A stretch of DNA of 64,000 nucleotides from an uncultured Gammaproteobacteria bacterium. Lineage in GTDB: Bacteria > Patescibacteriota > Microgenomatia > Levybacterales > UBA12049. The stretch is from the NCBI GenBank assembly GCA_965230895.1, contig OZ246394.1:185316-249315 (forward strand), written 5' to 3'. Below the pieces are notes generated by a model. The model saw only the letters and a list, made by a program, of their open reading frames with translations. It was not told the DNA's origin and ran no database searches. The translations under genes were made by a program, and so were the position numbers. Positions 37,341 to 54,193 of the stretch are shown here, one piece after another (within the stretch, counting starts at the first letter, position 1; each line of letters opens with the position of its first letter).

Positions 37341-38471
37341 ATGAAATATAATTTTTCAGAGAAGATTTTAGCTCCTAATTTTCGTAAAGATATTACGGAT
37401 CAGATTGAGGTTCTTATCTCAACAGGGTCATCATTTAATATTATTGGAATGCCATTTGTGGGGATTTCCCCTTTTTTTAGATATTTGGCGACAACAAGTT
37501 CTTCATACTCCATTTACACTGATGTTCATGCGTTATCGAATAGAAAGAAGGAAGATTTATTTTTGGCAATATATAAAGAGTTAGGCGGAACAGAATCAAT
37601 ACCTACTTATGAAGCATTTGACTATTGTAAAGAGATTTTAAAGGAATTACTTTCTACACAAAAAAAAGTTGTGCTAATGATTAATAGATTTGATTATTTA
37701 GAGAAGTCAGAGTACTCCAATGGAATATTTACTAATCTAAAAGCGCTTGAAGATATTGGTAAGGGGAGAGTAATTTTTGTAGTCGCTACAAGTAAACCTC
37801 TTTATGAAATTGATGAGGCAGCAATTTCTGATAGTAATCTTGCCTTTTTTTCAAAAATCGTATTCTTCCCTCCTTATTATGGTGAGGATTTGAAAAAGCT
37901 ACTTTTAATAAGTCCAACTGCTTTGAAGCCTGAACCAAAGGATTTAAGAACGGCACTCGATTTAAGTGGTGGTCATGCAACGCTACTTCAAGTTTTAATA
38001 AAAACCGATTTTCTAAATGATCCTTTTTCTGATCCTTTTATTAAACTACACTTAAAGGTCATTTATGATGCTTGTAGTACAAAACAGAAAAATATACTAT
38101 ATAAATTAGCTGTGGGGAGTAGATTAAAAGAAATAGATCCCTTCCTGATAAAAATAGGTATTATAAAAGAAATAAATGGCAGCTTTTACGTCTTTAGCCC
38201 CCTCTTTAGAACATTTTTGATTAATTATGTAAAACTAAAATTTTCTAAGAAAGAAAAAGTATTGTTTACGCTTTTAAAAAAGCACTTAGGTAGAACAGTC
38301 CTAAAAGATCAAATATTTCAAGAACTTTGGAAAGAAGATTTTGATAAACCTACGGATTGGGCTCTAAACTCTTTGGTTTATCGTTTAAGAAAAAATCCAA
38401 CAGTTATAAATAATAAATATATTATCGAGAATGAGAAAGATATTGGTTATAAGCTACTAAAGGGGAATTAG
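37341..38471 (+). CDS. ATPase-like domain (degenerate P-loop) fused to C-terminal OmpR/PhoB-type winged-helix DNA-binding domain
   Basis: N-terminal ...NIIGMPFVGISPF (GxxxxGIS in place of GxxxxGKS); C-terminal ...LFTLLKKHLGRTVLKDQIFQELW...WALNSLVYRLRKN...IENEKDIGYKL matches the trans_reg_C pattern. Confidence 0.45.
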   Translation: MKYNFSEKILAPNFRKDITDQIEVLISTGSSFNIIGMPFVGISPFFRYLATTSSSYSIYTDVHALSNRKKEDLFLAIYKELGGTESIPTYEAFDYCKEILKELLSTQKKVVLMINRFDYLEKSEYSNGIFTNLKALEDIGKGRVIFVVATSKPLYEIDEAAISDSNLAFFSKIVFFPPYYGEDLKKLLLISPTALKPEPKDLRTALDLSGGHATLLQVLIKTDFLNDPFSDPFIKLHLKVIYDACSTKQKNILYKLAVGSRLKEIDPFLIKIGIIKEINGSFYVFSPLFRTFLINYVKLKFSKKEKVLFTLLKKHLGRTVLKDQIFQELWKEDFDKPTDWALNSLVYRLRKNPTVINNKYIIENEKDIGYKLLKGN

Positions 38472-40681: not shown

Positions 40682-42202
40682 ATGGGAACAGATCAGTTTT
40701 TGCTCTACGGTTCATTGGCGATTCTTTATATTATAGCATTTATCTATATTATCGATTCTGTTAAGCAACATAAATCCCGTGATGTATACCTTAAAAGAGA
40801 AAAGAAAAATGAATCAGTCCTCAAAGCGCGGGAACGCGCACTCAATGCGACCGCTGCCTTGAATACTATTATTTTAGAGACATTGGATCTTGATGAAGCA
40901 ATTGGAAAGATCTCAAATTCTCTTCCACAGTATTTAGGTTATGAGACTGGTGTACTCGCGCTTATTGATGAATCAAAAGGCGTCCTCAAACGTGTCGGTC
41001 TTTCAAGTACTTCAGGCGGTATTGCGGCCGTAAAAGTTTTGGAAATACCATTTTCAAGCATTGAGATTAAATTAAGTGATAAAGAAAACTATTGTATCAA
41101 AGCTCTCGAACAAAAGAAGCCGCTTTATACCCGAGATTTATATGATGTTGTCCGTCCGGCAATTACCCCTGAGAACTCAAAGATTATTCAGAAGCACATG
41201 AATACCAAAACAACACTTATCTTCCCTATCTTTTCAAAAGAAGGAAAGCCGCTTGGAACCTTCCTAATTAGCATGAGCAAAGATTATAGTGAGATATCGG
41301 AATTTGAACATCAGACGATTAAAAATTTCATTGATTCTGTCCGCATTGCTTTAAATAATGCTACCTTATACACATCTCTGCAAAAAGCGACAGACGAGCT
41401 CAAAGAAGCAAATGAAAAACTGAAAGAATTGGATACGCTGAAAAATGAATTTGTTTCTGTGGCTTCTCATGAACTTCGTACGCCGATGACTGCTATCAAA
41501 TCATACCTCTGGATGGCACTTGAAGACCGTGGAGGTAAGCTGAATGAAAAGCAGCGTTACTATATCCAACGAGGATATAATTCGGTGGATCGGCTTATAC
41601 GCCTTGTCAATGACATGCTCAACATTTCTCGTATTGAAGCAGGAAGAATTACCGTAAATATGCAATCTGTTGATCTTGAAAAATTAGCTCAAGAAGTTAT
41701 CGATGAAGTGCAGCCGCGTGCAAAAGAAGTTGGTGTGAGCGTCACAATGGAAAAGCATGAGAAATTACCTCAAGTGCTTGCTGACTCTGATAAGATTAAA
41801 GAAGTCTTCTTTAATTTGATTGGTAATTCAATCAAATTTACACCAAAAGATGGGAAGATTACTGTCGGGTTTAGACAAAAAGATGGACTCATTGAGACTG
41901 TGATCAAAGATACAGGGAGTGGTATTGAAGCTGAAGATATCGGAAAGCTTTTCCAGAAATTCGGACTTCTTCCTGGTTCTTATACAACTAATCAGCCTGC
42001 AATGGGTACTGGTTTGGGGCTTTATATCTGCCGATCAATTGTGGAATTACATCAAGGAAAGATCTGGGCAGAATCTGATGGACGAGGTAAAGGTGCGACA
42101 TTTACATTCCAATTAAAAAAGTTTTCCAAAGCTGACCAAGAAGAATTTAATATGAGTACCGCGGATAAAGAAGATGCGGGATTGATCCACAGTGAAATTT
42201 AA
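40682..42202 (+). CDS. sensor histidine kinase (TM + GAF + HisKA + HATPase_c)
   Basis: N-terminal TM helix, H-box FVSVASHELRTPMT, and a C-terminal G-box pattern. Confidence 0.8.
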   Translation: MGTDQFLLYGSLAILYIIAFIYIIDSVKQHKSRDVYLKREKKNESVLKARERALNATAALNTIILETLDLDEAIGKISNSLPQYLGYETGVLALIDESKGVLKRVGLSSTSGGIAAVKVLEIPFSSIEIKLSDKENYCIKALEQKKPLYTRDLYDVVRPAITPENSKIIQKHMNTKTTLIFPIFSKEGKPLGTFLISMSKDYSEISEFEHQTIKNFIDSVRIALNNATLYTSLQKATDELKEANEKLKELDTLKNEFVSVASHELRTPMTAIKSYLWMALEDRGGKLNEKQRYYIQRGYNSVDRLIRLVNDMLNISRIEAGRITVNMQSVDLEKLAQEVIDEVQPRAKEVGVSVTMEKHEKLPQVLADSDKIKEVFFNLIGNSIKFTPKDGKITVGFRQKDGLIETVIKDTGSGIEAEDIGKLFQKFGLLPGSYTTNQPAMGTGLGLYICRSIVELHQGKIWAESDGRGKGATFTFQLKKFSKADQEEFNMSTADKEDAGLIHSEI

Positions 42203-42230
42203 TGCACAATAGTTCAGTATCTGCTATAGT

Positions 42231-43085
42231 TTGAATATGATAGATCCCTCCATTCCTTTTTATCTCTTCATTTTTCTTTTGGGTACAATTGTCGGAAGTT
42301 TCCTCGGAGTTGTGGCTGATCGAGTCGCAAACAATGAACCTATCTGGAAAGGAAGATCCCATTGTGATCATTGCCGACACAAGCTTCATTGGAATGATCT
42401 TATCCCACTCGTTTCATTCCTTATGTTGAAGAGAAAATGCAGATATTGTCATAAAGCGCTCGATTGGAATTATTTCACGATTGAAGTAGTGACCAGTTTA
42501 AGCTTTGTCCTGGCAACCTATGCGCTTTTCCAGGATAGCTTGGCAATATTCTTTGGATTGCAATATCAGCTTGTACTTCTTTACTACTTTGCGATTATAA
42601 GTTCACTCATAGCCATTGCTTTCACTGATATTAAGTATGGGATTATTCCATTCAAAGTGGTAGCGGTTGCGGTGGCAATTGCTGTCTTCTGGTTTTTCCT
42701 TTTCCCTGGGTTGTATATCTCTCCTCTTGAAGCGTCAGCGCTTGGATTGCAAACAGATATTCTTAATTTGCTCGCCTCAGGATTTGGAGCAGCGTTATTC
42801 TTCTTTGCTATGTTTTACATCACCAAAGGTCGAGGTTTGGGTTTTGGGGATGTTGTCTATGCTTTCCTCATGGGTCTTATCTTGGGTTTCCCTAAAGTCA
42901 TTTTGGCTTTGTATATTGCATTTGTTACGGGAGCAGTTGTTGCTTTGGTCCTTATTCTTTTAAAGAAAAAGAAGTTCAAAGGTGGGACAATACCGTTTGG
43001 TCCATTTCTTGTGATAGGCACGATTGTCAGTTTATTGTGGGGAAATACGATTATTGATTTTGCAATGCAATTCGTTGGATTGTAA
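42231..43085 (+). CDS. pilD: prepilin peptidase (A24 family)
   Basis: N-terminal CDHCRHKL...CRYCHKAL zinc-binding tetracysteine motif and a polytopic membrane body. Confidence 0.8.
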   Translation: MNMIDPSIPFYLFIFLLGTIVGSFLGVVADRVANNEPIWKGRSHCDHCRHKLHWNDLIPLVSFLMLKRKCRYCHKALDWNYFTIEVVTSLSFVLATYALFQDSLAIFFGLQYQLVLLYYFAIISSLIAIAFTDIKYGIIPFKVVAVAVAIAVFWFFLFPGLYISPLEASALGLQTDILNLLASGFGAALFFFAMFYITKGRGLGFGDVVYAFLMGLILGFPKVILALYIAFVTGAVVALVLILLKKKKFKGGTIPFGPFLVIGTIVSLLWGNTIIDFAMQFVGL

Positions 43086-43130
43086 GTTGCGAGTTGAAAT
43101 TCCGGACGGGGCCAGTTAATAATAAAGTAT

Positions 43131-43640
43131 ATGCAAAAAGGATTTACACTTGTTGAAATGCTCATTGTTCTCGGTATTGTGGGAATTGTAGCAACCATGC
43201 TTATCGTCGGGATCAACCCTCTTGATCAGATACGTAAATCAAGTGATGCTGATCGGAAGTCAGATATCGCGCAACTTCAAAAGGCTTTAGAATTATATTA
43301 TCAAGATAACGGCAGCTATCCTCCATCATCTGCAGATTACAAACTCTACATTAACAGTTCAACTCTTGCCTGGGGAACTGGTACATGGTTGCCGTACATG
43401 AGTAAACTGCCGAAAGATCCAAGTCCACAACGATCATATGTTTATTACGTCCCTGCATCATCAAATGGACAAACGTATTATATCTATAGTAGTTTAGAGA
43501 GAGGATCGAAAGATCCACAAGTATGTAATGCCGGGAATGCTTGTGTCAGTATCACTGCAGGCGTTGCTGGTTTCCCGACTGCAACTGCTTGTGGCACAAC
43601 GTGTAATTACGGAGTTTCCAGTCCAAATGTTTCACCATGA
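43131..43640 (+). CDS. type IV pilin
   Basis: Class III signal MQKGFTLVEMLIVLGIVGIV. Confidence 0.8.
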   Translation: MQKGFTLVEMLIVLGIVGIVATMLIVGINPLDQIRKSSDADRKSDIAQLQKALELYYQDNGSYPPSSADYKLYINSSTLAWGTGTWLPYMSKLPKDPSPQRSYVYYVPASSNGQTYYIYSSLERGSKDPQVCNAGNACVSITAGVAGFPTATACGTTCNYGVSSPNVSP

Positions 43641-44080
43641 GAAAGTTATTTAAGCAATCAAAAGGATTTACATTGATCGAATTATTAATTGTGCTGGCAA
43701 TTATCGGTACGTTAACTTCTATTATCATGGTTAATTTCCTGAGCGCTCGTGAACGTGGCCGCGATGGTGAACGAAAGTCAGAACTAAGACAATTACAAAC
43801 TGCTTTTGAATTATATCGAGCAGATCAAGGTACGTATCCACCAGCACCACTTCCAACCTGTGATACTCCGCTCACCAATGGTGGCACAACCTACATCCAG
43901 AAAATCCCATGCGATCCAACGAATTCAGGCCAACATGTCTACACATATACAACGACTGGAACAACATACAATCTTTTCTCATGTCTCGAGAATGAAAAAG
44001 ATGCGCAAAAAGACAAAGTAAATAATGCGACCTATTGTTCCGGTACAACAAATTGGTCCTTCACTCTCACCAACCCCTAA
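43637..44080 (+). CDS. type IV pilin
   Basis: MRKLFKQSKGFTLIELLIVLAIIG. Confidence 0.8.
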   Translation: MRKLFKQSKGFTLIELLIVLAIIGTLTSIIMVNFLSARERGRDGERKSELRQLQTAFELYRADQGTYPPAPLPTCDTPLTNGGTTYIQKIPCDPTNSGQHVYTYTTTGTTYNLFSCLENEKDAQKDKVNNATYCSGTTNWSFTLTNP

Positions 44081-44090
44081 AGGAAATTAA

Positions 44091-44118
44091 GAGTTGAGAA
44101 TTGAGAATTGAAAGTCGA
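44091..44118. repeat. heptamer array GAGTTGA GAATTGA GAATTGA AAGTCGA upstream of the third pilin gene
   Basis: Three to four 7-bp units; can be read as TTGAGA-N18-TATAAG promoter-like hexamers. Confidence 0.45.
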
Positions 44119-44131
44119 TAATGGTATAAGC

Positions 44132-44620
44132 ATGAGAAAACTCTCAACTGATATTCAACACTCAATTCAGCGCGGGTTTACACTCTTGGAACTCTTGGTG
44201 GTTATAGGGATCATTGGTGCGCTTACTTCTATTGGCTTGGCTTCATATTCAAGTTACACAACTGGACAAGCAATTCAGATCGCTTCAGCAGATATGATGC
44301 ACATGCTGAATCGTGCTAAATCAAGTTCTCTTTCTCAAGTAAAGCAACCGCAATGTGGTGCCAATCCAATTACTGGCTATCAAGTTTCATTTACGGTTCC
44401 AGGTCCAGCGTATACGATGTCAGTCCGATGCAATAACACCACCTACCCAGTGACATCAAAAGAGCTCCCGACTGGTGTAACGTTCGCCAATGGATCGACG
44501 ACAATGATTTTCTTCCCAGTTCTTAAAGGTACCAGTTCCCCTGCGACGATTACTTTGAATGGACAAACCAAAACAAAAGTTATTACCGTTACATCGACAG
44601 GCAATATTACCTCCAATTGA
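44132..44620 (+). CDS. type IV pilin-like (minor pilin)
   Basis: ...QRGFTLLELLVVIGIIG; start taken at the internal ATG of the TTG-initiated ORF 44108..44620. Confidence 0.7.
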   Translation: MRKLSTDIQHSIQRGFTLLELLVVIGIIGALTSIGLASYSSYTTGQAIQIASADMMHMLNRAKSSSLSQVKQPQCGANPITGYQVSFTVPGPAYTMSVRCNNTTYPVTSKELPTGVTFANGSTTMIFFPVLKGTSSPATITLNGQTKTKVITVTSTGNITSN

Positions 44621-44656
44621 GTTGCGAGTTGAAAGTTGCGAGTTGAGAGTTGATAA
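44620..44656. repeat. heptamer array GAGTTGC GAGTTGA AAGTTGC GAGTTGA GAGTTGA upstream of the fourth pilin gene
   Basis: Five 7-bp units in tandem. Confidence 0.5.
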
Positions 44657-44694
44657 TAAAATAAGTGAAGAAAATTTTCCATTTTCAATTTTCA

Positions 44695-45150
44695 ATGCAA
44701 AAGGGTGAAACACTTATTGAAGCATTGGCTGCGCTGGCATTAGTTGCGATTGTAATCTCGGCAATCACGACACTTATTACCACATCATTAAGCAACGCAA
44801 CTTATAATGAAAACCAAACGCTTGCGACCAAATTTGCTCAGCAAGGTATCGAATCAGTTCGTCAAATCAGAAATGCGAATTATGTAGCCTTCCGTACCTA
44901 TAATGGTTTGTATTGTCTTGGGAAAGGTCAGAGTTCACTTGGTCCACCACAATCAGCATGTGCGGCTCCTAACACCGATAACTTTATCCGATCCGTCCAA
45001 ATTGAACAGACACCAGGTTGTGCGACAAATGTTGCTCGTATCACTGTAAATGTGGCTTTCACAGATGGGAAATGTACAGGTAACTCGTATTGTCATATCC
45101 AGACCCACACATCATGTCTTTCAACTGTTAATCCAAATGGAACATTATGA
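44695..45150 (+). CDS. type IV pilin-like (minor pilin)
   Basis: MQKGETLIEALAALALVAIV; the ORF is open from a GTG at 44665. Confidence 0.65.
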   Translation: MQKGETLIEALAALALVAIVISAITTLITTSLSNATYNENQTLATKFAQQGIESVRQIRNANYVAFRTYNGLYCLGKGQSSLGPPQSACAAPNTDNFIRSVQIEQTPGCATNVARITVNVAFTDGKCTGNSYCHIQTHTSCLSTVNPNGTL

Positions 45151-45665
45151 GAAAGGTAGCATTACAAAAAGGATATACATTAGTTGAGCTTTTGGTTGTT
45201 ATAACGATTCTAAGTGTTATTGGTGTTATTGTGGTTACCGTTATCACTATTAGTCTCCGTGGTTCGCAGAAGTCAGATAAACTCGAAATCGTCAGACAAG
45301 GTGGCGATACAGCGATGTCGCAAATGGTACGGAGCATCCGATATGCAAAGTCTTTGGACTCCCCCGCTTCATGTGTCCCCGCGACCAATGTCTCTTCCAT
45401 CACTATTACATCATTACAAGATAATGGACAGACAACCTATAGCTGCGCATCAAATGCCATTGCTTCAAATAGTGCACCGCTTGTCGATACAAATGCAGTG
45501 AATGTGAATGCCTGTTCATTTACCTGTTCGCAACAACGAGTGAGTGATCCTCCAACCATTCAAATACAGTTTTCTTTGAGCGCGAAGAATGAAAGTAGCT
45601 TCACAGAGACCAAGGCTGTGATTCCTTTTCAGACCAGTGTAACGTTGCGTAATTACGCTCGATAA
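45147..45665 (+). CDS. type IV pilin-like (minor pilin)
   Basis: MRKVALQKGYTLVELLVVITILS; ATGA overlap with the previous gene. Confidence 0.7.
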   Translation: MRKVALQKGYTLVELLVVITILSVIGVIVVTVITISLRGSQKSDKLEIVRQGGDTAMSQMVRSIRYAKSLDSPASCVPATNVSSITITSLQDNGQTTYSCASNAIASNSAPLVDTNAVNVNACSFTCSQQRVSDPPTIQIQFSLSAKNESSFTETKAVIPFQTSVTLRNYAR

Positions 45666-45709
45666 CGATTGACACTACCTCTACAGCTTGTTACGATAAA
45701 TACGGAGTA

Positions 45710-46531
45710 TTGTATTTACGAATGGAATATCAAAGAGGACAAGTCCTACTTATTGTTGTTTTAGTTATGGTTACTGCATTAACAGTTGGCTTATCTGTCG
45801 CCGCCCGCACAATTACAAATATCAGAACATCTCAGGAAGCTGAAAATTCTGAAAAAGCCTTTTCTGCTGCTGAAGCTGGGATCGAACAATCACTAACAAA
45901 TGGTGTTCCAGTGAATGGAAGTTTTTCAAATAAATCGACATACCAGACAACAGTTAGCACCATTGCTGGAGTTGAGTTTGCTTTGAATAACGGAGTGCCT
46001 GTGCTGAAAGATGATTCACTTGATCTTTGGCTTTCAACCTACCCTGCTTACAGTAATCCATGGAGCGGGACACTGACGCTTTATTGGGGCGATTCCGGGA
46101 ATTCATGTACACCATCAGAATCCACAAATACTATGGCAGCGCTTGAGATCATCGTCATGAGCGGGACAAAGGCAAATCCCCAAACCACCCGATATGCAGT
46201 CGATCCCTGCTCGCAACGAAGCTTGAGTAATAAGTTCGAATTTATTTCTCCAGGTGGTGGTACAGTTGCGGGGAAGAATTATGCTTTCCGCCGAACCATC
46301 AATGTCAGTTCTGGTATGTTTGTCCGTATCATTCCTCTCTATTCTCCAACCAATATCGCAGTCCGAGGATGCGATGCAGCAAATACTACATGCAACGCAT
46401 TACCTTCTCAAGGAACCGTTGTTGAAGCTGTCGGTACAGCAGATAATACAACAAGAAAATTAGTGAGTTTCCGACGCTATCCAAAACTGCCCACAGAACT
46501 TTTCCCATATAGTTTCTTTGCACCGCAATAG
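45710..46531 (+). CDS. PilX-like minor pilin/pilus assembly protein
   Basis: N-terminal ...RGQVLLIVVLVMVTALT, a PilX_N-type hydrophobic segment. Confidence 0.5.
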   Translation: MYLRMEYQRGQVLLIVVLVMVTALTVGLSVAARTITNIRTSQEAENSEKAFSAAEAGIEQSLTNGVPVNGSFSNKSTYQTTVSTIAGVEFALNNGVPVLKDDSLDLWLSTYPAYSNPWSGTLTLYWGDSGNSCTPSESTNTMAALEIIVMSGTKANPQTTRYAVDPCSQRSLSNKFEFISPGGGTVAGKNYAFRRTINVSSGMFVRIIPLYSPTNIAVRGCDAANTTCNALPSQGTVVEAVGTADNTTRKLVSFRRYPKLPTELFPYSFFAPQ

Positions 46532-46533
46532 AT

Positions 46534-47568
46534 ATGAAAAGTAATGCTTTTGGATTAGATATAGGAACAAACTCGATTAAGGTCGCGTGGCTCAACCGTG
46601 ACAATAACACCATTTCGTATGGGACCTCACATATCGTGCCAACTCCTGCACAAGGTATGCAATCTGAGTCTCCATTTGATCATCAGGAAATGGCGCAAGT
46701 AATCAACAAAGCGGTTATTGATGCCAAGATCAGTACGAACAATGTAAATATCGCCTTGCCAGAAAATCATGCTTATACCAAAGTAGTCGAGATGCCAAAC
46801 CTTTCCGACAAAGAATTATCCAGTGCTATTTATTGGGAAGCTGAACAATATATTCCTGTACCATTAGATACGGTAACGTTAGCATGGAGTAAGCTGCGTC
46901 CGATTAAGAGTGCCGTCGGTGAGGACAGAATGCAGGTGCTTCTCGTCGCTGCGCCGAAGGATTTGATTAAACGATACCAGACAATTCTGGATCTTGCTGG
47001 TTTGACAATCGTTTCCGTCGAAACAGAAATTCTTTCTGTCATCCGTGGACTTATTCCACAAAGTAACAATCCGACATCACTGATCGCAAATATCGGAGCG
47101 ATGGGAACAACGCTTGGTATTGTCCAAAACGGTATCATTCTCTTTAATTATTTTGTCCCGCTCGGAGGAGTTGCTTTGACTCGAGCGATTGCTTCGGATT
47201 TTGGATTGCCGATTGATCAAGCAGAAGAATACAAACGAACGTATGGACTTTCTGATAGGAATTTTGGGGGCAAAGTCGGTCAAGCAATTTCTCCTATTTT
47301 GACAGCACTTTTGAGTGAAGTAAAAAAGGCGCTGACGTTTTATAACGATAAATACAAAAATGAAGTGCCAATCACCCAAATCCTTCTGACCGGTGGTGGG
47401 GCAAATCTTCCTGGTTTGGCAATCTATTTTGCGCAAAATATGGGACTTGAAGCAGTCATCGCAAACCCTTGGAGTATGCTCAATATCCAAGGCGTTCCTG
47501 CTGGAATTGAAGCAAAAGGTCCTGAGTACGCAGTCGCTGTTGGATTGGCTATGAAAGAATATGAGTGA
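46534..47568 (+). CDS. pilM: type IV pilus assembly protein PilM (actin-like ATPase)
   Basis: FGLDIGTNSIKVAWL phosphate-1 motif and PilM length. Confidence 0.8.
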   Translation: MKSNAFGLDIGTNSIKVAWLNRDNNTISYGTSHIVPTPAQGMQSESPFDHQEMAQVINKAVIDAKISTNNVNIALPENHAYTKVVEMPNLSDKELSSAIYWEAEQYIPVPLDTVTLAWSKLRPIKSAVGEDRMQVLLVAAPKDLIKRYQTILDLAGLTIVSVETEILSVIRGLIPQSNNPTSLIANIGAMGTTLGIVQNGIILFNYFVPLGGVALTRAIASDFGLPIDQAEEYKRTYGLSDRNFGGKVGQAISPILTALLSEVKKALTFYNDKYKNEVPITQILLTGGGANLPGLAIYFAQNMGLEAVIANPWSMLNIQGVPAGIEAKGPEYAVAVGLAMKEYE

Positions 47569-48100
47569 TGGAATAAATCTCCTTGATCCGAATAAAAAGA
47601 ATGAAAACCTGCTTCCTGCTAAAAGGATGCAGTTCATGAATTATTTCGCGATTGGGTTGTTGTTTATTGTTTCTGTGTCGTCTGTCACATTATTCATCCT
47701 TATCTCATTATCTCCATTGCCTGAACTAAAGAGGCAAGAGGCTGGTTTGCGAAATACATTGGCGCAATCAAGTGAAGATATGGCAAAGCTCGCACTTCTT
47801 GATGAGCGGACTGGTGCTATAGCGGATTTGCTAAAGAAACGGACAGCATATGATAAGACCATAAGCTTACTACAAGCAAAGCTCCCAAACAATGCAGCAA
47901 TCAGTTCAATCCGTGTTGATCAAAAGACATTGGTGGTTACCGTGGAGAGTAGTTCATTGCAAGCGCTTGATACATTTCTCAACGGCATGATTGGGTATGT
48001 GCAGAGCAAGGAAGCATTTTCGCAAGTTACGATGACAAGTCTTTCAACCGATGTTGAAACAAATGGATATTCTCTGACCGTGAGTTTGGTCATGTTATAA
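47561..48100 (+). CDS. pilN: PilN-like pilus assembly protein
   Basis: INLLDP N-terminus and a single TM helix. Confidence 0.55.
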   Translation: MSDGINLLDPNKKNENLLPAKRMQFMNYFAIGLLFIVSVSSVTLFILISLSPLPELKRQEAGLRNTLAQSSEDMAKLALLDERTGAIADLLKKRTAYDKTISLLQAKLPNNAAISSIRVDQKTLVVTVESSSLQALDTFLNGMIGYVQSKEAFSQVTMTSLSTDVETNGYSLTVSLVML

Positions 48101-48102
48101 GT

Positions 48103-48846
48103 ATGAGTAAAGAAACGTGGATAGGCAAAAAAGGCCTACGATATTGGTATTACAAATATAGAGATTCAGAGTATTTTTCTCTTGGCTTTACTGCGGTTGC
48201 GGTCGTCGGATGTTTGATTCTTCTTTTTTATGTCATTATCCCTCAGGTGACGAGTTGGTTCTCTATCCGTGATGAAATTATCGCTACTCGTGAACGAATC
48301 TCTGTCTTGCAGGATAATATCAATTTCATGAACAATCTCGACAAAGGCCAGATGAATACACAGATTCAAACAGCTGCCGGTGCACTCCCTCCTGAAAAAG
48401 ATTTCGGGTCAATGCTGGATGTACTTTCTGGAGCAGCAGTATCTTCCGGAGTCTCTCTCAATGATTTCTCTTTCCAGGTCGGTAATGTCGCTTCTTCATC
48501 AGGTATGGTTCTGGATGAGCGTCATAAAAATCTCGCTTCAGTGAAGATAACTGTAGTTGCTTTAGGAAGTGTCGATAAGGTAAAGAAGTTCATTAGCACG
48601 GTCCAGAATAGTGTGCCGATCTCTGAAGTCGTGAACATCGATGGAAGTGGACAGACGATTTCGATAAGTATTCAATTTTATCAAAAGAATTTGAAGGATG
48701 TGAAGATCCAGGAAGATCAGCCGCTTAAGCCGCTTTCTGCTGAGAAGTTCGCATTGTTGCAGCAATTGAATACATGGAAGAAGAGTCAAACAAATGTGAA
48801 TTTTGAAAGTTCTGATGCAAGCGGAGGTGCGCTTCCACTCTTTTAA
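48103..48846 (+). CDS. pilO: PilO-like pilus assembly protein
   Basis: Single TM helix plus a periplasmic domain, in pilMNO order. Confidence 0.5.
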   Translation: MSKETWIGKKGLRYWYYKYRDSEYFSLGFTAVAVVGCLILLFYVIIPQVTSWFSIRDEIIATRERISVLQDNINFMNNLDKGQMNTQIQTAAGALPPEKDFGSMLDVLSGAAVSSGVSLNDFSFQVGNVASSSGMVLDERHKNLASVKITVVALGSVDKVKKFISTVQNSVPISEVVNIDGSGQTISISIQFYQKNLKDVKIQEDQPLKPLSAEKFALLQQLNTWKKSQTNVNFESSDASGGALPLF

Positions 48847-48858
48847 CCCCTACCTCTT

Positions 48859-48903
48859 GTCATCCTAAGTACCCGGATGGGTAGAATTTAGTTCAGGATC
48901 ACC
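48859..48903. repeat. member A of the ATCCTGAA...TTCAGGAT hairpin-repeat family (expanded loop)
   Basis: GTCATCCTAAGT...AGTTCAGGATCAC; compare 52830..52850 and 54173..54193. Confidence 0.4.
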
Positions 48904-48926
48904 AATAAAAGCGTGTTTCTTTTCTT

Positions 48927-49078
48927 GTACTTTTGACCGCAAAAGTACCAAAACTCTGTCCGCTCATGAAGTCGGGCTAAAATTACTCCGTTCACTTCCG
49001 GGGGAAACACTCCCCCTCCGGCAATTCGCCGGTGGTCCCCCTGGACGTTCTCTTCGTAATTTCTTTACGCCCTTTGTT
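48927..49078. ncRNA. candidate structured RNA / structured repeat element, copy 1
   Basis: ~150 nt, ~75% identical to 57982..58130. Three hairpins are preserved by compensatory changes (GTACTTTTG-ACCG-CAAAAGTAC vs CTACTTTG-GCCG-CAAAGTAG; CCGGC-AATTC-GCCGG vs TCAGC-AATTC-GCTGG; CCGGGGG-loop-CCCCC). Confidence 0.45.
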
Positions 49079-49117
49079 CAACGCTCCCAAAATTGTCAAA
49101 TGTGTTTTATATTGTAC

Positions 49118-49651
49118 TCAAATTGCCGAACTTTTTTGTTTTAAATATTCTAAAAGTTCTTTTTCATAACCCATTATTGACCAATTTTTATCCTGGGTTT
49201 TAATAATTACTTCATATAAACTTTCAATTGAAACCCATTTCACTTCTTCAACTTCATCCTTTTCTAATGTTAATTCGGCAACTTTCCCATTCCAAAATAA
49301 ATAATGTACTCCTTGAAACTCTTTTCCTTGTAAGTCTTTGAAAATAGTAAACTGATGTATATCTTCTTCAAGCGCCTGAATGCCTAACTCTTCTTCTAAT
49401 TCATTTCTGGCATTTGTGATGTAGGCTTCATCAGGTGCCATGTGTCCTCCAAAGAAGGGTTCCCATTTCCCAGGATTCATGTCTTTTAGTAGAGATCTTT
49501 TTTGACAGAGTATTTCACTGTGAGAATTAATAATCCAAATATGTGCAGTTCTATGCCAATATCCATCTCTATGCACTTCATGTCTTGGCTTAGGTTCTGT
49601 TGGGATATTGTTCTCATCAACTACGAACAAGAGTTCACTACGATTAATCAT
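49118..49651 (-). CDS. NUDIX hydrolase
   Basis: Nudix box GGHMAPDEAYITNARNELEEELG. Confidence 0.7.
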   Translation of the reverse strand: MINRSELLFVVDENNIPTEPKPRHEVHRDGYWHRTAHIWIINSHSEILCQKRSLLKDMNPGKWEPFFGGHMAPDEAYITNARNELEEELGIQALEEDIHQFTIFKDLQGKEFQGVHYLFWNGKVAELTLEKDEVEEVKWVSIESLYEVIIKTQDKNWSIMGYEKELLEYLKQKSSAI

Positions 49652-49679
49652 TAGCTGAGTATATCAGAAAGAGGTATAT

Positions 49680-50378
49680 TTATTTTTCTTCGAGGAGGTC
49701 GGGGCGGTGCTTTTTGGTTTTTTCTAGGGCTTTTTCGTGGCGCCAGTCAGCTATCTTTTTGTGATCTCCCTGCAGGAGAACTTCTGGGACGTCTTGTCCG
49801 TCGTATGATCGTGGCTTTGTGTAGTGAGGGTATTCGAGGAGTGCACCATCTGGTTGCGAAAATGATTCATCATCGGTTGCACCGTCTGTGATGACCCCAG
49901 GGATAAGTCTGATGATACTGTCTGCGATAAGCATGGCTGGGATTTCTCCTCCGGTCAGGACGAAGTCTCCGATTGAAACTTCCCCATCGACATATTTCAT
50001 GATTCGATCATCAAATCCTTCATAATGTCCGCAGATGATGATGAGATGATCAAGCTGAGAATATGCCTTGGCATGAGTTTGCTTATACGTCTCGCCCCCT
50101 GCCGCTGTCAAAAGAATTTTCCGTTTTACTTCCCCTTCGCCATTGAAATTTGCCTTCGCCTTCTCAATCGCAGCATGCACGACATCGACTTTAAGCACCA
50201 TCCCAATTCCCCCACCATATGGTGTATCATCAACCATCTGATGCGACCCAATCCCGAAGTCCCTGATATCCAAAAGCTCAATCTCCACAAGCCCCTTCTC
50301 CTGCCCCCGCTTGACAATAGATTCAGTAAAAGGCCCAACGAACATTTCAGGAAACAAAGTAAGAATGCTTATTTTCAT
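49680..50378 (-). CDS. trmD: tRNA (guanine37-N1)-methyltransferase
   Basis: MKISILTLFPEMF... and GGGIGMVL SPOUT-knot motifs. Confidence 0.9.
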   Translation of the reverse strand: MKISILTLFPEMFVGPFTESIVKRGQEKGLVEIELLDIRDFGIGSHQMVDDTPYGGGIGMVLKVDVVHAAIEKAKANFNGEGEVKRKILLTAAGGETYKQTHAKAYSQLDHLIIICGHYEGFDDRIMKYVDGEVSIGDFVLTGGEIPAMLIADSIIRLIPGVITDGATDDESFSQPDGALLEYPHYTKPRSYDGQDVPEVLLQGDHKKIADWRHEKALEKTKKHRPDLLEEK

Positions 50379-50465
50379 AGGAGTATTATAGCAAAAGTAC
50401 TTAAAGCAAAAATATACTTTAAATGCGAATGTATTTTAGATAGATTAAGATTAATTATTTAATGA

Positions 50466-52805
50466 ATGTCAGTTATAATACATTTAATAATGATTAAAAA
50501 GATTTTAAAAATTCGTAATGTGGGACTTTTGAGAGATGCCATATCTAAAACTGGTATTGGACTTACTCCGTTTACCATGATCTATGCAGAGAATGGCATT
50601 GGTAAATCAACGTTAGCAATGATAATTCGTTCTATTGGTAACAAAGAAAGTACAAATATCATCTCTAAAAAAACGATTGATTCTGAGCATGAGCCATACA
50701 TAGAAATACTAACTCAAGATGGCAAAACTATTCATACTCATAAATTTGAGAATAGTCAATGGAGTAATCAAAATAAAACCCCTGTTGAAGTTTTTGACTC
50801 TGAATTTGTAGAGAAGAATATTTATTCAGGAAGCATTATATCCGCCGAACACAGACAATCTTTACTTGAATTTGCCTTAGGTGACCAAACAGTTGAACAT
50901 AAACACAAAGTAGATGAATTAACCAGACAATATGATGAAGAAAGCAAAAACCTTACAACATTAGCAAGAGCAATTAAAGGTTTATCTCAGCAGTTGTCTT
51001 TAGAATTATTTATTGCTCTCCCAGAGGTTCCTAAAGATTATGAGGATAAAGTAAAAGAATTAGAGTCGAGTATAACCGCATTACGCAATATTAATCAAAT
51101 AAATGGCCGGCCAAAGCTATCAATAATTGACAAAGTTAATATTGATCTAACAAGTATAGAAAACTTACTCTCTAAACAACTAAAAGATGTCGAGTCTTCA
51201 GCTGAAGAAATCGTTACTAAACATTTTAAAAATCATGATAGAAAAATTGAAGAATGGGTAAATGAAGGTCAGATTTTATTGAAGGATTCAACTTGTCCAT
51301 TCTGTGGTAGCAATACTGAGAATCTTGAAATAATCTCTGCATATAAAACCTATTTTAATCAAAACTATAACGCTTTAAAAAAATCTATTAAAGATACTCA
51401 AGATGATGTAAACAAAGTACTCTCGGAAGGCTCTTTAAACTCTGTTACTAGTTCTATATCGATGAATGATGAACGAATCAAGAGCTGGGAAAGTGAATTA
51501 GGCTTTGAGTTAATTCCTTTTGATAGTGCAAAGTTTAAAGTGATTTTTAGAGAACTTAGATCACTCATACAGATTCAATTATTGAGTAAAGGTAATAAAC
51601 CACTTGAAGCTATAGATTTAGAGTCTAGCGACTGTAAAGTTAGTGAAAAATGGAACGAAATAAATAAGCTGATAACTGAATATAACGATTCTATTTCTAC
51701 TTATAATGAAGCTATTGATGCTTATAAAAGTAAACTAAAACCAAATGATATATCTAAGTTTCAAATAGACCTTAGTCGATTAAGGTTAACTAAGGTCAAA
51801 AACTCAAAAGATGTTTTGACTTTAATTTCACAATACTCGATTTCAAAGCAAAAGGTTGATGCTCTAGTTCAGTTGAAGAAAGAATTAAGAGCCGAAATAG
51901 ATAAAGAAATGGAAAGTACTTTAAGTATTTATCAATCAGAGATTAATAATACATTGAAATCTCTTAATGCGAATTTTTCGATAGAAAAACTAAAACACAC
52001 TTATCAAGGTACAGGTGAACCTAGATCTGAATATATACTTAAGTTAAGAAATTATGAGGTATCTTTAGTCACAAGAGATCCTAAATACCCATCATTCTCA
52101 AGTACTCTTAGCGAAGCGGACAAAAGAACATTGGCATTAGCTTTTTTTGCTGCAAGATTAAAACAAGATAAAAAGTTATCAAGTAAGATAATTGTTTTTG
52201 ATGATCCTATGTCCAGCCTAGATAGAAATCGACGTGACAAAACTTTAAGACTAATATGTGAACTGTCTGCAACAGCTATTCAAACTATTTTACTTTCTCA
52301 CGACGCGTATTTCTTAAGAGATGTTAAAAATCATGCAGAAAGAATAAAATTGCATACTGGCATGATTCACCTTTACGAAATTCGACGAGGGCTACAAGAT
52401 TATTCTGTACTTGAAAATTGTGATTTAGAGGGACTTTGTGCTTCTCCTTATTACAGACATCATGCTAACGTAAGTAAATTTGTTCAAGGTGATAGATCCG
52501 TACGCATTGAATCTGTTGCACAATCTATTCGGCCATTACTCGAAGGTTATTATCATAGACGCTTCCCTGGATTAATCTCTAAACAAATGATGTTTGGAAA
52601 TATAATTAAAATTATTTCTGAATCTACACCTCCTAGTCCTTTAGTTCATCTGCATGCAAACATAGAATCTCTGTCTGAAGTAAATGATTATGTAACTCAA
52701 TTTCATCACAATGATGGTGAATCAAATGAAACAATCGTATATAATGAAACAGAAATATTAGGTTATGCAAAAACTGCAATAGAACTAATTGAGAAACATG
52801 GATAG
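50466..52805 (+). CDS. RloC/PrrC-like AAA_13 (ABC-type) ATPase with coiled-coil and CxxC zinc-hook; candidate anticodon-nuclease-type defence protein
   Basis: N-terminus IKKILKIRNVGLL...FTMIYAENGIGKSTLA (PrrC/RloC-type head + Walker A), a central K/E-rich coiled coil containing CPFCGS, Walker B / D-loop IIVFDDPMSSLD, H-loop LLSHD, and a ~190-aa C-terminal domain. Much lower GC than flanks. An alternative start lies at 50490. Confidence 0.55.
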   Translation: MSVIIHLIMIKKILKIRNVGLLRDAISKTGIGLTPFTMIYAENGIGKSTLAMIIRSIGNKESTNIISKKTIDSEHEPYIEILTQDGKTIHTHKFENSQWSNQNKTPVEVFDSEFVEKNIYSGSIISAEHRQSLLEFALGDQTVEHKHKVDELTRQYDEESKNLTTLARAIKGLSQQLSLELFIALPEVPKDYEDKVKELESSITALRNINQINGRPKLSIIDKVNIDLTSIENLLSKQLKDVESSAEEIVTKHFKNHDRKIEEWVNEGQILLKDSTCPFCGSNTENLEIISAYKTYFNQNYNALKKSIKDTQDDVNKVLSEGSLNSVTSSISMNDERIKSWESELGFELIPFDSAKFKVIFRELRSLIQIQLLSKGNKPLEAIDLESSDCKVSEKWNEINKLITEYNDSISTYNEAIDAYKSKLKPNDISKFQIDLSRLRLTKVKNSKDVLTLISQYSISKQKVDALVQLKKELRAEIDKEMESTLSIYQSEINNTLKSLNANFSIEKLKHTYQGTGEPRSEYILKLRNYEVSLVTRDPKYPSFSSTLSEADKRTLALAFFAARLKQDKKLSSKIIVFDDPMSSLDRNRRDKTLRLICELSATAIQTILLSHDAYFLRDVKNHAERIKLHTGMIHLYEIRRGLQDYSVLENCDLEGLCASPYYRHHANVSKFVQGDRSVRIESVAQSIRPLLEGYYHRRFPGLISKQMMFGNIIKIISESTPPSPLVHLHANIESLSEVNDYVTQFHHNDGESNETIVYNETEILGYAKTAIELIEKHG

Positions 52806-52829
52806 TAGACTTAAAAGTTAATTTTATGG

Positions 52830-52850
52830 ATCCTGAAACGAGTTCAGGAT
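52830..52850. repeat. member B of the hairpin-repeat family (ATCCTGAA-acgag-TTCAGGAT)
   Basis: Perfect 8-bp stem, 25 nt after the RloC-like stop, between convergent genes. Confidence 0.5.
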
Positions 52851-52861
52851 GACATATGGAT

Positions 52862-53104
52862 TTATTCCTTATCCAATTCAGCGAGGGAGATTTTGATTCT
52901 TTGGTTGTATTTCATCGCTTTGATCTTCATGATGTTGCGGATACTTCGGATAACTTTACCTTCTTTACCGATAACCTTACCCATATCTTCAGGAGCTACA
53001 GTCAAAGTGTAAAGGTGGATTCCGTCTTCTTCGCGTTCTTCGATTTGAACTGCGTCAGGATTATCGACGATAGATGAAACGATAAAGTGGAGTGTTTCTT
53101 GCAT
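52862..53104 (-). CDS. KH-domain RNA-binding protein (YlqC/UPF0109-like)
   Basis: ...MGKVIGKEGKVIRSIRNI GxxG KH motif; start taken at MQETLHF. Confidence 0.7.
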   Translation of the reverse strand: MQETLHFIVSSIVDNPDAVQIEEREEDGIHLYTLTVAPEDMGKVIGKEGKVIRSIRNIMKIKAMKYNQRIKISLAELDKE

Positions 53105-53109
53105 GTTTA

Positions 53110-53337
53110 TTATTTCGTTAACGCTTGAACCGTTGCTGAAGGTTGTGCACCTTGACTCAACCAATAGTTGTAACGTTCCATGTTAACCTTCTTTTTACTA
53201 TGATCAGTTGATTTTTCATACCAACCAAGCATGTCGATGAAACCGCCATCTCGGCGACTTCGCTTTTCTTTAACAACAATTCGGAACTTACGTTCGCCCT
53301 TCTTGCCTGTTCGTGTTAATCGTATTACTAATGCCAT
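53110..53337 (-). CDS. rpsP: 30S ribosomal protein S16
   Basis: MALVIRLTRTGKKGERKFRIVV...; start taken at MALVI inside ORF 53110..53379. Confidence 0.9.
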   Translation of the reverse strand: MALVIRLTRTGKKGERKFRIVVKEKRSRRDGGFIDMLGWYEKSTDHSKKKVNMERYNYWLSQGAQPSATVQALTK

Positions 53338-53345
53338 AATTAAAT

Positions 53346-53428
53346 TGAGAGTTGCGAATGAAGAGTTGGGAGTTATCAAGAACTATTAAATATAATTCTC
53401 AATTTCTTAACTATCAATTCTCAACTAC
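53346..53428. repeat. array of 7-bp GAGTTGA-type repeats (direct + inverted copies) in the rnc-rpsP intergenic region
   Basis: GAGTTGC GAATGAA GAGTTGG GAGTTAT ... followed by inverted copies TTCTCAA TTTCTTA ACTATCA ATTCTCA; related arrays at 43086-43103, 44091-44118 and 44620-44656. Confidence 0.5.
53389..53417 (-). promoter_or_regulatory. candidate sigma70-type promoter for rpsP (TTGATA-N17-TATATT on the minus strand)
   Basis: Hexamers built from the heptamer repeats, ~45-75 nt upstream of the rpsP start; by inspection only. Confidence 0.3.
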
Positions 53429-53440
53429 GCTATTGTACCA

Positions 53441-54127
53441 TTATTTGGCTATCTTCTCAAGAGCCTGTTCTGCAGCAGCTTCTTCTGCTGCTTGCTTTGA
53501 CTTCCCTGTGCCTTCACCTTTCAAATCATTGCCTACATAGACACCGATTGTGAATATCTTCGCGTGCGCTGGACCTTCTTCATGGAGGACTTTATAAACT
53601 GGTGAATTCTGTTTCTTGGATTGGACATATTCCTGCAAAAGACTCTTTGGGTCTTTGAACACTTTTTTCTCAACAAAGACCGCGATGTGTGGGATCAAAA
53701 CGACGTTTAAGAAATCTTTTACTGCATCGATGCCCTGATCCATGAAGAGCGCTCCGATGACAGCTTCAAAGGTATTTGCCAGGATTGATTCGTTCTCTCG
53801 CCCTCGTGAATCTTCCTCCCCTTTTGAAAGCTGCAAATGATCTCCAAAATGCAATTCGCGAGCTGTCTTTGCAAGACTTTTTGTATTGACCACAAGTGAT
53901 CGAAGATTGGTCAGGATTCCTTCATCAAATTGTGGATAGGTCTTGTACAAATGCTCTGAAACGACGAATGATAAGATACTGTCTCCAAGGAACTCAAGTC
54001 GTTCGTTGGATTCGACAGTTTCTTTTGCTTCGTTCAAATATGAGCGATGGATAAATGCATGCTTAAGCAATTGTTCGTTTTTAAATGTTGGTAGATTATT
54101 CATAATTTGTTTCTCCTTATCTGTCAT
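53441..54127 (-). CDS. rnc: ribonuclease III
   Basis: ERLEFLGDSIL signature and a C-terminal dsRBD. Confidence 0.9.
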   Translation of the reverse strand: MTDKEKQIMNNLPTFKNEQLLKHAFIHRSYLNEAKETVESNERLEFLGDSILSFVVSEHLYKTYPQFDEGILTNLRSLVVNTKSLAKTARELHFGDHLQLSKGEEDSRGRENESILANTFEAVIGALFMDQGIDAVKDFLNVVLIPHIAVFVEKKVFKDPKSLLQEYVQSKKQNSPVYKVLHEEGPAHAKIFTIGVYVGNDLKGEGTGKSKQAAEEAAAEQALEKIAK

Positions 54128-54146
54128 GCTGAATTTATTTCAGCAT
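54126..54146. repeat. variant hairpin ATGCTGAA-tttat-TTCAGCAT overlapping the rnc start codon
   Basis: Same stem as the ATCCTGAA family with a C:G to G:C swap. Confidence 0.4.
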
Positions 54147-54172
54147 CCCCAATTAAAAGCTGTTAGTATGGG

Positions 54173-54193
54173 ATCCTGAATCGAGTTCAGGAT
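54173..54193. repeat. member C of the hairpin-repeat family (ATCCTGAA-tcgag-TTCAGGAT)
   Basis: Between the nusB stop and the rnc start. Confidence 0.5.

Follow-up and report, generated by a model that had tools for sequence, protein, structure and literature searches.

Among the long simple sequence repeats (SSRs) of prokaryotes, heptanucleotide repeats form the commonest class, and they have been proposed to arise by slippage (Mrazek 2007, as summarised in PMC4679880). In Haemophilus influenzae, a transcribed 7-bp SSR upstream of the adhesin gene hmw1A pairs with a G-rich arm, and the resulting hairpin is processed by RNase III (PMC12721329). Tandem heptamers of unresolved function also lie beside the start codons of genes without a Shine-Dalgarno (SD) sequence in Beggiatoaceae, Cyanobacteria and Bacteroidetes (TAACTGA, PMC4679880), and the units TTCAAAA and GACYAAT occur as tandem heptamers near start codons in Nostoc (bioRxiv 10.1101/2022.06.06.494920). 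Here, we describe tandem heptads of the GAGTTGA type at four intergenic sites in a 64,000-nucleotide stretch of contig OZ246394.1 (assembly GCA_965230895.1; hereafter the window), three of them upstream of prepilin genes and one upstream of rpsP, the gene for ribosomal protein S16. Judging from sequence, we put the probability at about one half that these lineage-typical tracts form the core promoter at pilins 1, 3 and 4 and a hairpin 3' of the promoter at rpsP.

Type IV pili are central to host attachment, movement and DNA uptake in bacteria of the Candidate Phyla Radiation (CPR/Patescibacteria), and to our knowledge almost nothing is known about the control of CPR pilin genes. Relatives of the PilM encoded in the window place its source in Candidatus Levyibacteriota, a phylum of this group. 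A histidine kinase gene (40682-42202) is followed by the gene for the prepilin peptidase PilD (42231-43085) and by five prepilin genes starting at 43131, 43637, 44132, 44665 or 44696, and 45147, after which come an unknown gene and PilM/N/O-like genes. The other strand carries nusB, rnc (RNase III, 53441-54127), rpsP (53110-53337) and a KH-domain gene. These gene identities agree with an earlier, sequence-only reading of the window, the prepilins matching N_methyl/T2SSG and S16 being encoded 3' of RNase III. The genes for pilins 2 and 5 each begin within the stop codon region of the gene before them, overlapping that stop codon; an upstream gap exists only at pilins 1, 3 and 4, and every one of these gaps contains a heptad array.

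The four arrays exist as that reading described them, with coordinates slightly corrected. Site 1 (43084-43099, + strand) lies directly 3' of the PilD stop and comprises two RRGTTGA units, AAGTTGC GAGTTGA AA, with a third phased TTG extending into the stop codon itself; it holds a candidate -35 TTGAAA (43094-43099) and is kept with one mismatch in the related locus L001 (related loci are numbered here with the prefix L). Site 2 (44091-44118, + strand) consists of four heptads, GAGTTGA GAATTGA GAATTGA AAGTCGA, with a candidate -35 TTGAGA at 44094-44099 and a last unit that merges into the -10 GATAAT (44117-44122), ahead of the pilin 3 ATG at 44132. Site 3 (44619-44653, + strand) has five heptads, GAGTTGC GAGTTGA AAGTTGC GAGTTGA GAGTTGA, beginning within the pilin 3 stop codon context AATTGA and providing a candidate -35 TTGAAA (44629-44634) and -10 GATAAT (44652-44657); the candidate starts of pilin 4 are GTG 44665 and ATG 44696. 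Site 4 (53342-53426) lies upstream of rpsP, which is on the - strand, and contains TTGA-type units followed by inverted copies, the TTGA-type units coming first on the + strand and likewise in the rpsP orientation (-).

The window contains 11 matches to the 14-mer GAGTTGMGARTTGA at up to two mismatches, where 2.8 are expected and none of 100 shuffles gives as many; 10 of the 11 belong to one of the four sites or to an inverted copy partnering a site. Tandem Repeats Finder (TRF) detects sites 2 and 3 as period-7 arrays, along with 44673-44696, and a cruder count of at least three phased TTG triplets gives 3 against 1.6 expected, which is not significant alone. All four sites are base-for-base equal in five independent assemblies of one strain, so the arrays are no assembly artefact. 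This same-strain set comprises every assembly encoding identical pilin 3 and S16 proteins, and all of its members are 100% identical at the four sites.

The strongest support for arrays exceeding chance comes from comparative enrichment among 149 Levyibacteriota loci, in which a core of 80 genome loci plus the window amounts to 1.31 Mb and the addition of metagenome loci brings the total to 1.71 Mb. Within the core, period 7 is the commonest tandem period by a wide margin, with 70 arrays against at most 23 for any other period from 4 to 12, and 45 of the 70 lie within 160 nt 5' of the prepilin cleavage-site codon (G/FTLIE), a zone that makes up 3.8% of the sequence. When metagenome loci are included, the count rises to 105 period-7 arrays, 63 of them at pilin 5' ends, and enrichment at these ends across the 149 loci is ~35-fold. 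The longest heptad array by far lies elsewhere, as ~15 perfect GAATTAG units between two minus-strand open reading frames (ORFs) in an intergenic region of L019 (3055-3158).

The geometry of the pilin arrays is that of a sigma-70 promoter. In a consensus scan of 42900-45300, the top three sigma-70-like sites, all on the + strand, are the three pilin arrays, each with 10/12 matches: TTGAAA-18-AATAAT at pilin 1 (43094-43123), TTGAGA-17-GATAAT at pilin 3 (44094-44122) and TTGAAA-17-GATAAT at pilin 4 (44629-44657). The -10 region of pilin 1, TAATAAT (43117-43123, + strand), allows two readings, TAATAA (17-bp spacer) or AATAAT (18-bp spacer), and lies 7-8 nt 5' of the ATG at 43131; at the three window sites, the start codon lies 7-9 nt past the -10. 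Neither SD nor terminator-like sequences are found at the pilin sites, and no terminator-like site lies between the pilin genes. The last unit of the array joined to TAAT yields the -10, as TTGATAAT (TCGATAAT at site 2), and a TTGA three heptads 5' of the terminal TTGATAAT has the exact 17-bp spacer. Because 3 x 7 + 2 = 23 = 6 + 17, any TTGA three units upstream is correctly spaced as a -35, so that unit gain or loss leaves the predicted promoter unbroken. Runs of five phased TTGA-like units terminate in GATAAT upstream of pilins 3 and 4 in the window and of pilins 1 and 3 in L002; in L027 and L090, the run has four units.

A -10 so close to the start codon at pilins 1, 3 and 4 fits the lineage, since leaderless gene starts are common in it. 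Among 1962 ORF starts of related loci, TAnAAT-N6-ATG occurs in 60 cases against a background of ~10, and TATAAT lies 6-9 nt before the ATG in many window genes (for example in the gaps 1672-1747, 8266-8318, 23608-23677 and 50379-50465). A clear SD is present at some genes, such as AAGGAGGTG before 11302. The pilin arrays most likely form promoters, carrying the -35 and filling the spacer of pilins 1, 3 and 4. One unit would supply the -35 (TTGAGA or TTGAAA), the following units would fill the 17-bp spacer, and the last unit with TAAT would make up the -10 (TTGATAAT). Transcription, presumably by the housekeeping sigma factor, would start 7 +/- 1 nt past GATAAT and give pilin 1 (with pilin 2), pilin 3 and pilin 4 (with pilin 5) each an mRNA of its own with a leader of 0-3 nt, in keeping with the usual gene-start architecture of the lineage.

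Conservation among relatives points to the same elements. Pilin promoters were picked by a [GA]ATAAT box 5-13 nt 5' of an in-frame start, and 21 promoters of the sub-clade that includes the window, stacked on the -10, have the consensus gaGTTGAaA-N14-AAaGtTgATAAT, in which the TTGA of the -35 lies exactly 23 nt 5' of the -10. GTTGA at the -35 and TGATAAT at the -10 are conserved in this stack; the spacer varies in sequence and shows no more than a weak trace of a 7-bp period. In L001, whose PilM is 94% identical, pilin 3 retains TTGAAA-17-GATAAT-8-ATG with its heptads decayed, and 25/34 positions of this promoter are identical to the window in a manual alignment. As the -35 and -10 are kept and the spacer units are not, the constraint falls on the -35 and -10, which favours a promoter over an operator array. 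The sequence-only reading, which expected promoters at the repeat sites, is therefore supported at pilins 1, 3 and 4, where geometry and the 21 stacked promoters agree with it, and is not supported at rpsP (see below). Its suggestion of an UP-like module does not fit either: instead of forming an A/T-rich tract at -40 to -60, the arrays run from about -45 to -10 and are rich in G and A.

At pilin 4, a promoter seems to have arisen recently, by expansion of heptads from a seed in the TTGA of the pilin 3 stop codon. In L001 and L002, the gap between pilins 3 and 4 is absent, as is the site 3 array, and the two genes are coupled as TGAtATG and TAGtATG, respectively. Arrays in L002 are found elsewhere, at pilin 1 (GAGATGA x5), pilin 3 and pilin 5 (AGAGTTG x4.4, perfect). 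Such expansion would have released pilin 4 from translational coupling and given it a promoter of its own, and arrays in general may grow and decay by slippage-type expansion.

At rpsP, the repeats occupy a different position. In 68 related loci, the rnc stop codon (TAA) is followed by TGGTAcAAT, 6-8 nt and the rpsP ATG, with a -35 TTGAGA inside the rnc 3' end; rpsP in these loci is, by this layout, a predicted leaderless gene with a conserved promoter. The same promoter is present in the window (53432-53460, - strand) as a -35 TTGAGA (53460-53455) in the rnc 3' end, a 17-bp spacer and an extended -10 TGGTACAAT (53440-53432), giving 10/12 matches plus the TG extension. Here, a heptad hairpin insert of ~87 bp separates the -10 from the ATG (53337-53335). 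Arm 1, AGTTGAGAATTGATAGTTAAGAAATTGAGAATT (53394-53426, - strand), is made of TTGA-type heptads and begins approximately at the expected transcript start of the conserved promoter. Arm 2, AACTCCCAACTCTTCATTCGCAACTCTCAATTT (53342-53374, - strand), consists of inverted C/U-rich copies and ends 4 nt before the rpsP ATG. The loop between the arms is AT-rich, and the hairpin has a predicted energy of -19.8 kcal/mol (z -2.8). Because the insert lies 3' of the conserved -10, the rpsP repeats are predicted 5' untranslated region (UTR), the very placement that the sequence-only reading had named as incompatible with a promoter array. At rpsP, the module would fold as a hairpin at the 5' terminus of an mRNA that was once leaderless and has newly gained a 5' UTR. 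The insert also contains a second promoter-like site, TTGATA-17-TATATT (53389-53417, - strand; 10/12 matches, a consensus match only), which takes its -35 from arm 1 and its -10 from the loop in the layout seen at the pilin sites.

Inserts between the rpsP -10 and ATG are found at 11 junctions (the window and 10 other species). Their sequences are unrelated, and many are built from other heptads, including TTAGTAC/AAGAACT (L002), TCCGAAT/ATTCGGA (L022, L071) and GCGTATA (L023). Seven of the 11, the window included, fold as a hairpin with z <= -2.7. A 41-nt heptad insert likewise separates the -10 and ATG of another gene in L106 and is absent from L104, at 91.5% identity.

Sites 2, 3 and 4 have inverted partners with which they could form hairpins, and site 1 has none. 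The partners of sites 2 and 3, which the sequence-only reading overlooked, lie in prepilin leader codons. That of site 2, CTCTCAACTGATATTCAACACTCAATTC (44141-44168, + strand), falls in the pilin 3 leader (MRKLSTDIQHSIQRG/FTLLE) and gives a duplex of -17.9 kcal/mol (z -3.3). That of site 3, (ATTTTCN)x3 (44674-44696, + strand), falls in the pilin 4 leader (VKKIFHFQFSMQKG/E), gives a duplex of -21.6 kcal/mol (z -3.7), and is of the G-poor leader-array kind found in pilins across Levyibacteriota. The array-leader duplex of pilin 1 in L002 reaches -43.6 kcal/mol (z -9.6), and z for arm complementarity lies between -3.3 and -9.6 among the four best-developed arrays; complementarity is lacking where a promoter has fewer phased units, z being ~0 in 5/9 cases. 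Unit variants agree between arms (GAGATGA/TCATCTC in L002, GAATTGAG/CTCAATTC in the window), and in L001 both arms have decayed together. Of the 105 arrays counted over all loci, 24 are accompanied within 110 nt by an inverted copy matching at 12/14 positions or more, and the control gives 5. Whole-region folding in the window is modest (z -1.5 to -2.8), and swapping arms between loci as a covariation test gives native arms a slight gain only (-18.5 against -16.1 kcal/mol), a difference kept small because the unit family is common to the loci.

Several observations weigh against the combined reading of core promoter and downstream hairpin. All promoter calls are consensus matches, and the region-wide match count of 9 is not above the 6.9 obtained in shuffles. 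The distance from GATAAT to the start is 7-12 nt at pilins, rather than the sharp 6 nt of the leaderless class of the lineage, implying short leaders, and GTG, a candidate start of pilin 4, is unusual as a leaderless start. The conserved AAGTTGA directly 5' of TAAT exceeds what sigma-70 needs and, together with the GAGTTGA of the -35, forms a 21-bp-spaced direct repeat, which is a possible factor binding site. Slippage is not directly seen: no unit changes occur among the five assemblies that are 100% identical or within any of four pairs at 99.5-99.9% identity, and the units of the window arrays are imperfect. Finally, the hairpins have no consistent sense-strand G-U bias across sites, so selection at the RNA level is not demonstrated. 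Given no consistent sense-strand advantage, the pairing could reflect an RNA function or an origin at the DNA level, such as template switching in quasi-palindromes.

The inverted partners also underlie an alternative in which the repeats act as an RNA hairpin element, the G/A-rich array pairing with its C/U-rich inverted copy in polycistronic histidine kinase-PilD-pilin transcripts and in the rpsP 5' UTR. RNase III cleavage or masking of the start codon would then set the relative amounts of the pilins, as shown for H. influenzae hmw1A (PMC12721329), a precedent for this alternative, which we rate as rather unlikely. It accounts for the partners at sites 2, 3 and 4, the duplex z scores of the developed arrays with their extreme at L002 pilin 1, the excess of partnered arrays over the control and the folding of 7/11 rpsP inserts, but not for the missing partner at site 1 and at most related promoters. 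Read-through is plausible because no terminators lie between the pilin genes, although at the pilin sites arm 1 would be untranscribed if the predicted promoters are used. The window does encode rnc, but adjacency of rnc and rpsP is universal in the clade, hairpin or not. The inconsistent advantage of sense over antisense stability and the modest fold scores of the window further disfavour a hairpin as the primary function.

The promoter reading and the inverted copies can nevertheless be joined. If the predicted promoters are used, arm 1 falls outside the own-promoter pilin transcript, leaving read-through RNA as the one place in which the hairpin could form. The repeats would be transcribed 5' UTR at rpsP and in pilin read-through transcripts, but not in own-promoter pilin transcripts. 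The C/U-rich copies in the leader codons of pilins 3 and 4 would form a hairpin around the start codon in the former kind of pilin transcript and not in the latter. This arrangement suggests that arrays and inverted copies may serve as a device separating own-promoter from read-through expression. Its boldest form, which we regard as speculative and improbable, is a lineage-wide heptad device on pilus genes in which the purine-rich array is the promoter, the pyrimidine-rich mirror lies in leader codons and only own-promoter transcripts are translatable. If true, folding around the start codon would silence read-through transcripts or expose them to RNase III cleavage, rapid array turnover would make and destroy promoters and let episymbionts rewire pilin display, and SSRs would have a new use in gene control, in a phylum for which hardly any regulation is known.

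The 21-bp spacing within the pilin consensus bears on the sequence-only suggestion that the repeats are operator sites for a local regulator. In its most developed form, RAGTTGA units would bind a pilus-specific factor, for example a partner of the conserved histidine kinase, with one site at the -35 and another beside the -10, both on one side of the helix at a distance of 21 bp, and additional units in the interval. Exactly this spacing separates the two RAGTTGA motifs conserved in the pilin promoter consensus, that consensus is unlike the TGnTAnAAT promoters of housekeeping genes in the same genomes, and one unit family is common to sites 1-4. The units between the two motifs, however, are not kept in relatives, and units differ freely at orthologous positions (GAGATGA at L002 pilin 1, unrelated units at rpsP). 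OmpR/PhoB winged-helix sites and the heptamer sites of Streptomyces antibiotic regulatory proteins (SARPs) have 10-11 bp spacing. A contiguous 7-bp period departs from this, and only the two motifs at the 21-bp distance face the same way on the helix. Among the regulators, only the histidine kinase is syntenic, its gene lying immediately upstream of PilD and the pilins in 23 related loci as well; the neighbourhood has no gene for a response regulator. A protein with an OmpR-type winged-helix domain (Trans_reg_C, 37341-38471), the one DNA-binding candidate encoded locally, has no homologue in any related locus. An operator array is, on this evidence, a weak and distinctly unlikely explanation.

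Repeats that are not multiples of three near the starts of surface-filament genes could also act as contingency loci, in which hypermutable tracts switch pilin expression by unit number, through promoter strength upstream and frameshifting in leader codons, and pili are varied against hosts or phages. The leader arrays bear most directly on this possibility. Most pilin 5'-end arrays lie inside prepilin leader-peptide codons, as in (AATTTTC)4, (AATTTCA)5 and (TTCAAAA)4, which encode MNKFSIFNFQFSKSKG, MQFQISNFKFQISKG and MRRISKFKIQNSKFTG, respectively. In 44 of 50 such arrays, an in-frame ATG precedes the array by 4-11 nt; for the remaining six, an in-frame start lies within the array itself or a GTG lies upstream. 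Many are perfect arrays of 4-5 units, and arrays have been gained, lost or replaced between genomes 87-94% identical, which together with the ~35-fold enrichment would fit contingency loci. The opa CTCTT repeats offer a precedent. Yet no clear OFF (out-of-frame) allele is found among the 50, array lengths cluster narrowly at 4.3-4.9 units, and no unit changes between pairs at 99.5-100% identity, the five identical-strain assemblies among them, leaving classical frameshift phase variation unsupported. The hmw 7-bp repeats are a further precedent (PMC12721329); the window units, however, are imperfect, the promoter geometry is insensitive to unit number, and equally perfect arrays occur inside essential trmD and inside recG. 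Contingency switching is accordingly given poor odds.

Two features of the leader arrays have a simpler origin. Their TCAA core is strand-specific (29/50 against 4 expected), and it was considered as a sequence-specific signal or binding motif and rejected, being forced by the avoidance of TAA, TGA and TAG in the three frames of A/T-rich heptads; the arrays are G-poor because stop codons are avoided in all three frames. In L061 (~5566-5611), a 260-aa pilin directly 3' of PilD has a (CAATTTT)4 leader array and no ATG between the PilD stop and the cleavage-site codon, the only in-frame candidates being a distant TTG and a farther ATG, both inside PilD. This pilin may have an unusual start or be an inactive allele.

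The sequence-only reading had listed random placement of arrays, genes included, as evidence against itself. In relatives, heptad arrays do occur inside genes, in prepilin leader codons and in PilD, TrmD and RecG; the window orthologues of PilD, TrmD and RecG are without heptad arrays. The arrays in these three genes are perfect or near-perfect, differ in unit, hold a fixed position and are translated in frame in intact housekeeping ORFs. Those in PilD are found at L031 5296, L051 5962, L052 5997, L061 5017, L062 5266 and L072 5507, and those in TrmD at L010 12873, L012 12898 and L016 2802. In RecG, they are direct-plus-inverted pairs, at L010 17165, L027 17211, L046 7617/7657, L071 16856, L044 13371/13401 and L036 10703/10744, the last two loci not having been inspected individually.

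A miniature mobile palindromic element, non-autonomous and similar to Correia elements, Rickettsia palindromic elements (RPEs) or miniature inverted-repeat transposable elements (MITEs), that inserts at gene starts and carries promoter-like sequence by chance would explain inverted arms around an AT-rich loop, presence or absence between close relatives, in-frame inserts in PilD, TrmD and RecG of relatives and the insertion of true 21-27-nt mini-palindromes into these arrays, but is very improbable, as no two modules are alike beyond the unit motif, units at orthologous positions are unrelated between species, target-site duplications and terminal signatures are absent, the window holds only 4 copies in 64 kb and these are not near-identical, and most arrays have no inverted partner.

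The mini-palindromes themselves are GC-rich and perfect (for example CTTTCGGCTTGAGCTCAGGCCGAAAGC and GCCTGCCTCGCGTCAAGGCGGGC) and look like miniature mobile elements, being found in one genome and absent from a relative 87-93% identical. They occur at L091 ~1883 (compared with L027 ~6975), L041 ~396 and ~5241, L046 ~4497 and L104 ~7424, and one interrupts a pilin's (AATTTTC)n leader array without disturbing the frame. In the window, a 27-nt hairpin, GGATCCTGAA(A/T)CGAGTTCAGGATGACA, has two + strand copies against 0 expected by chance, one in the gap downstream of the KH-domain gene (52828-52854) and the other in the nusB-rnc gap (54171-54197); it may be terminator-like or a mobile mini-palindrome. 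A ~28-nt inverted repeat, CTTGCCTGAGC.CAGTCGAAGGC / GCCTTCGACTACGCTCAGGCAAG, at 13330-13370 and 13644-13738 flanks a 90-aa ORF (13371-13643).

Other candidate elements at the arrays were rejected. A sigma-28-type promoter, considered for the CGATAA-like -10, lacks a TAAA box at the right spacing. An invertible-promoter switch was set aside in view of an inter-arm segment of only 25-45 bp and the lack of a recombinase nearby, and antisense promoters from the inverted arms reach only 9/12 matches. Rfam gives no relevant match at E <= 1 in 42000-55000, and a tRNA scan found nothing relevant. Between the pilus assembly genes and a NUDIX gene, a 271-nt gap (48847-49117) is GC-rich and structured-looking, with no tRNA and no Rfam match (E <= 1); it may hold an undescribed RNA or a gene remnant.

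Heptad tracts at pilus gene starts are a previously undescribed habit of this lineage, to which both the pilin and the rpsP repeats belong. For the pilin genes of one CPR phylum, the arrays provide a promoter model, GAGTTGAAA-N14-AAGTTGATAAT followed by 6-9 nt to the start codon, and evidence for promoter birth by heptad expansion seeded on a stop codon. The strong association of 7-bp repeats with pilin 5' ends, including repeats translated in the leader peptide, is undescribed in the literature searched, where no report of heptad repeats in CPR pilin genes was found. Although heptanucleotide SSRs near gene starts are already known, the pilin-specific, lineage-wide pattern and the case of promoter birth are new. 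Levyibacteriota also add a new lineage to those with unexplained heptamers near start codons (Cyanobacteria, Beggiatoaceae, Haemophilus hmw), one in which the gene class is unusually clear, and this clarity may make the function of such repeats more tractable.

Among known systems, the (5'-ATCTTTC)n repeat of hmw1A/hmw2A is the nearest worked-out case, sharing with the window a 7-bp repeat directly upstream of an adhesin or surface-filament gene (PMC12721329). A repeat arm and a complementary purine/pyrimidine-rich arm forming a long hairpin are found at sites 2-4 and not at site 1, RNase III is encoded in the genome, and the rpsP copy is predicted 5' UTR. The hmw arrays, however, have at least 11 perfect units that vary between isolates and are transcribed in full, whereas the window arrays have 2-5 imperfect units with no copy variation seen. 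Moreover, the array at the pilin sites is a predicted promoter rather than a UTR, and its second arm lies in coding sequence.

The heptamers of Beggiatoaceae, Cyanobacteria and Bacteroidetes are similar in being contiguous, present in 2-6 copies and placed tens of nucleotides from the start codons or -10 of SD-less genes, ribosomal protein genes included. Cyanobacterial short tandemly repeated repetitive (STRR) sequences are tandem heptamers, and, from the work of Elhai, small dispersed repeats reportedly occur within Nostoc heptamer tracts; the small palindromic insertions inside Levyibacteriota tracts are comparable. In the Beggiatoaceae, cyanobacterial and Bacteroidetes genomes, one unit recurs at hundreds of sites with no gene-class preference. 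In Levyibacteriota, by contrast, the unit varies by site and species, and the arrays are concentrated at pilins and phase-locked to the -10.

Neisseria opa genes carry a pentamer, (CTCTT)n, in signal-peptide codons that is long, perfect and demonstrably frame-switching. The leader arrays of Levyibacteriota, including 44674-44696, resemble it as pyrimidine-rich, non-triplet repeats in the codons of a cleaved leader, and differ in having 3-5 units and no clear OFF allele among 50. The pilin sites resemble ordinary leaderless sigma-70 promoters in their -35 (TTGAnA), in a spacer of 17-18 bp, in the A2 and T6 of the -10 and in the nearness of the start codon (within 10 nt); unlike them, the pilin sites have a spacer of -35-like heptads and a conserved AAGTTGA directly 5' of the -10, and lack the TGn extended -10 of housekeeping promoters in the same genomes. 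The window arrays are set apart from all of these compared systems in being short and imperfect, phase-locked to the -10, themselves the predicted promoter, and mirrored in leader codons.

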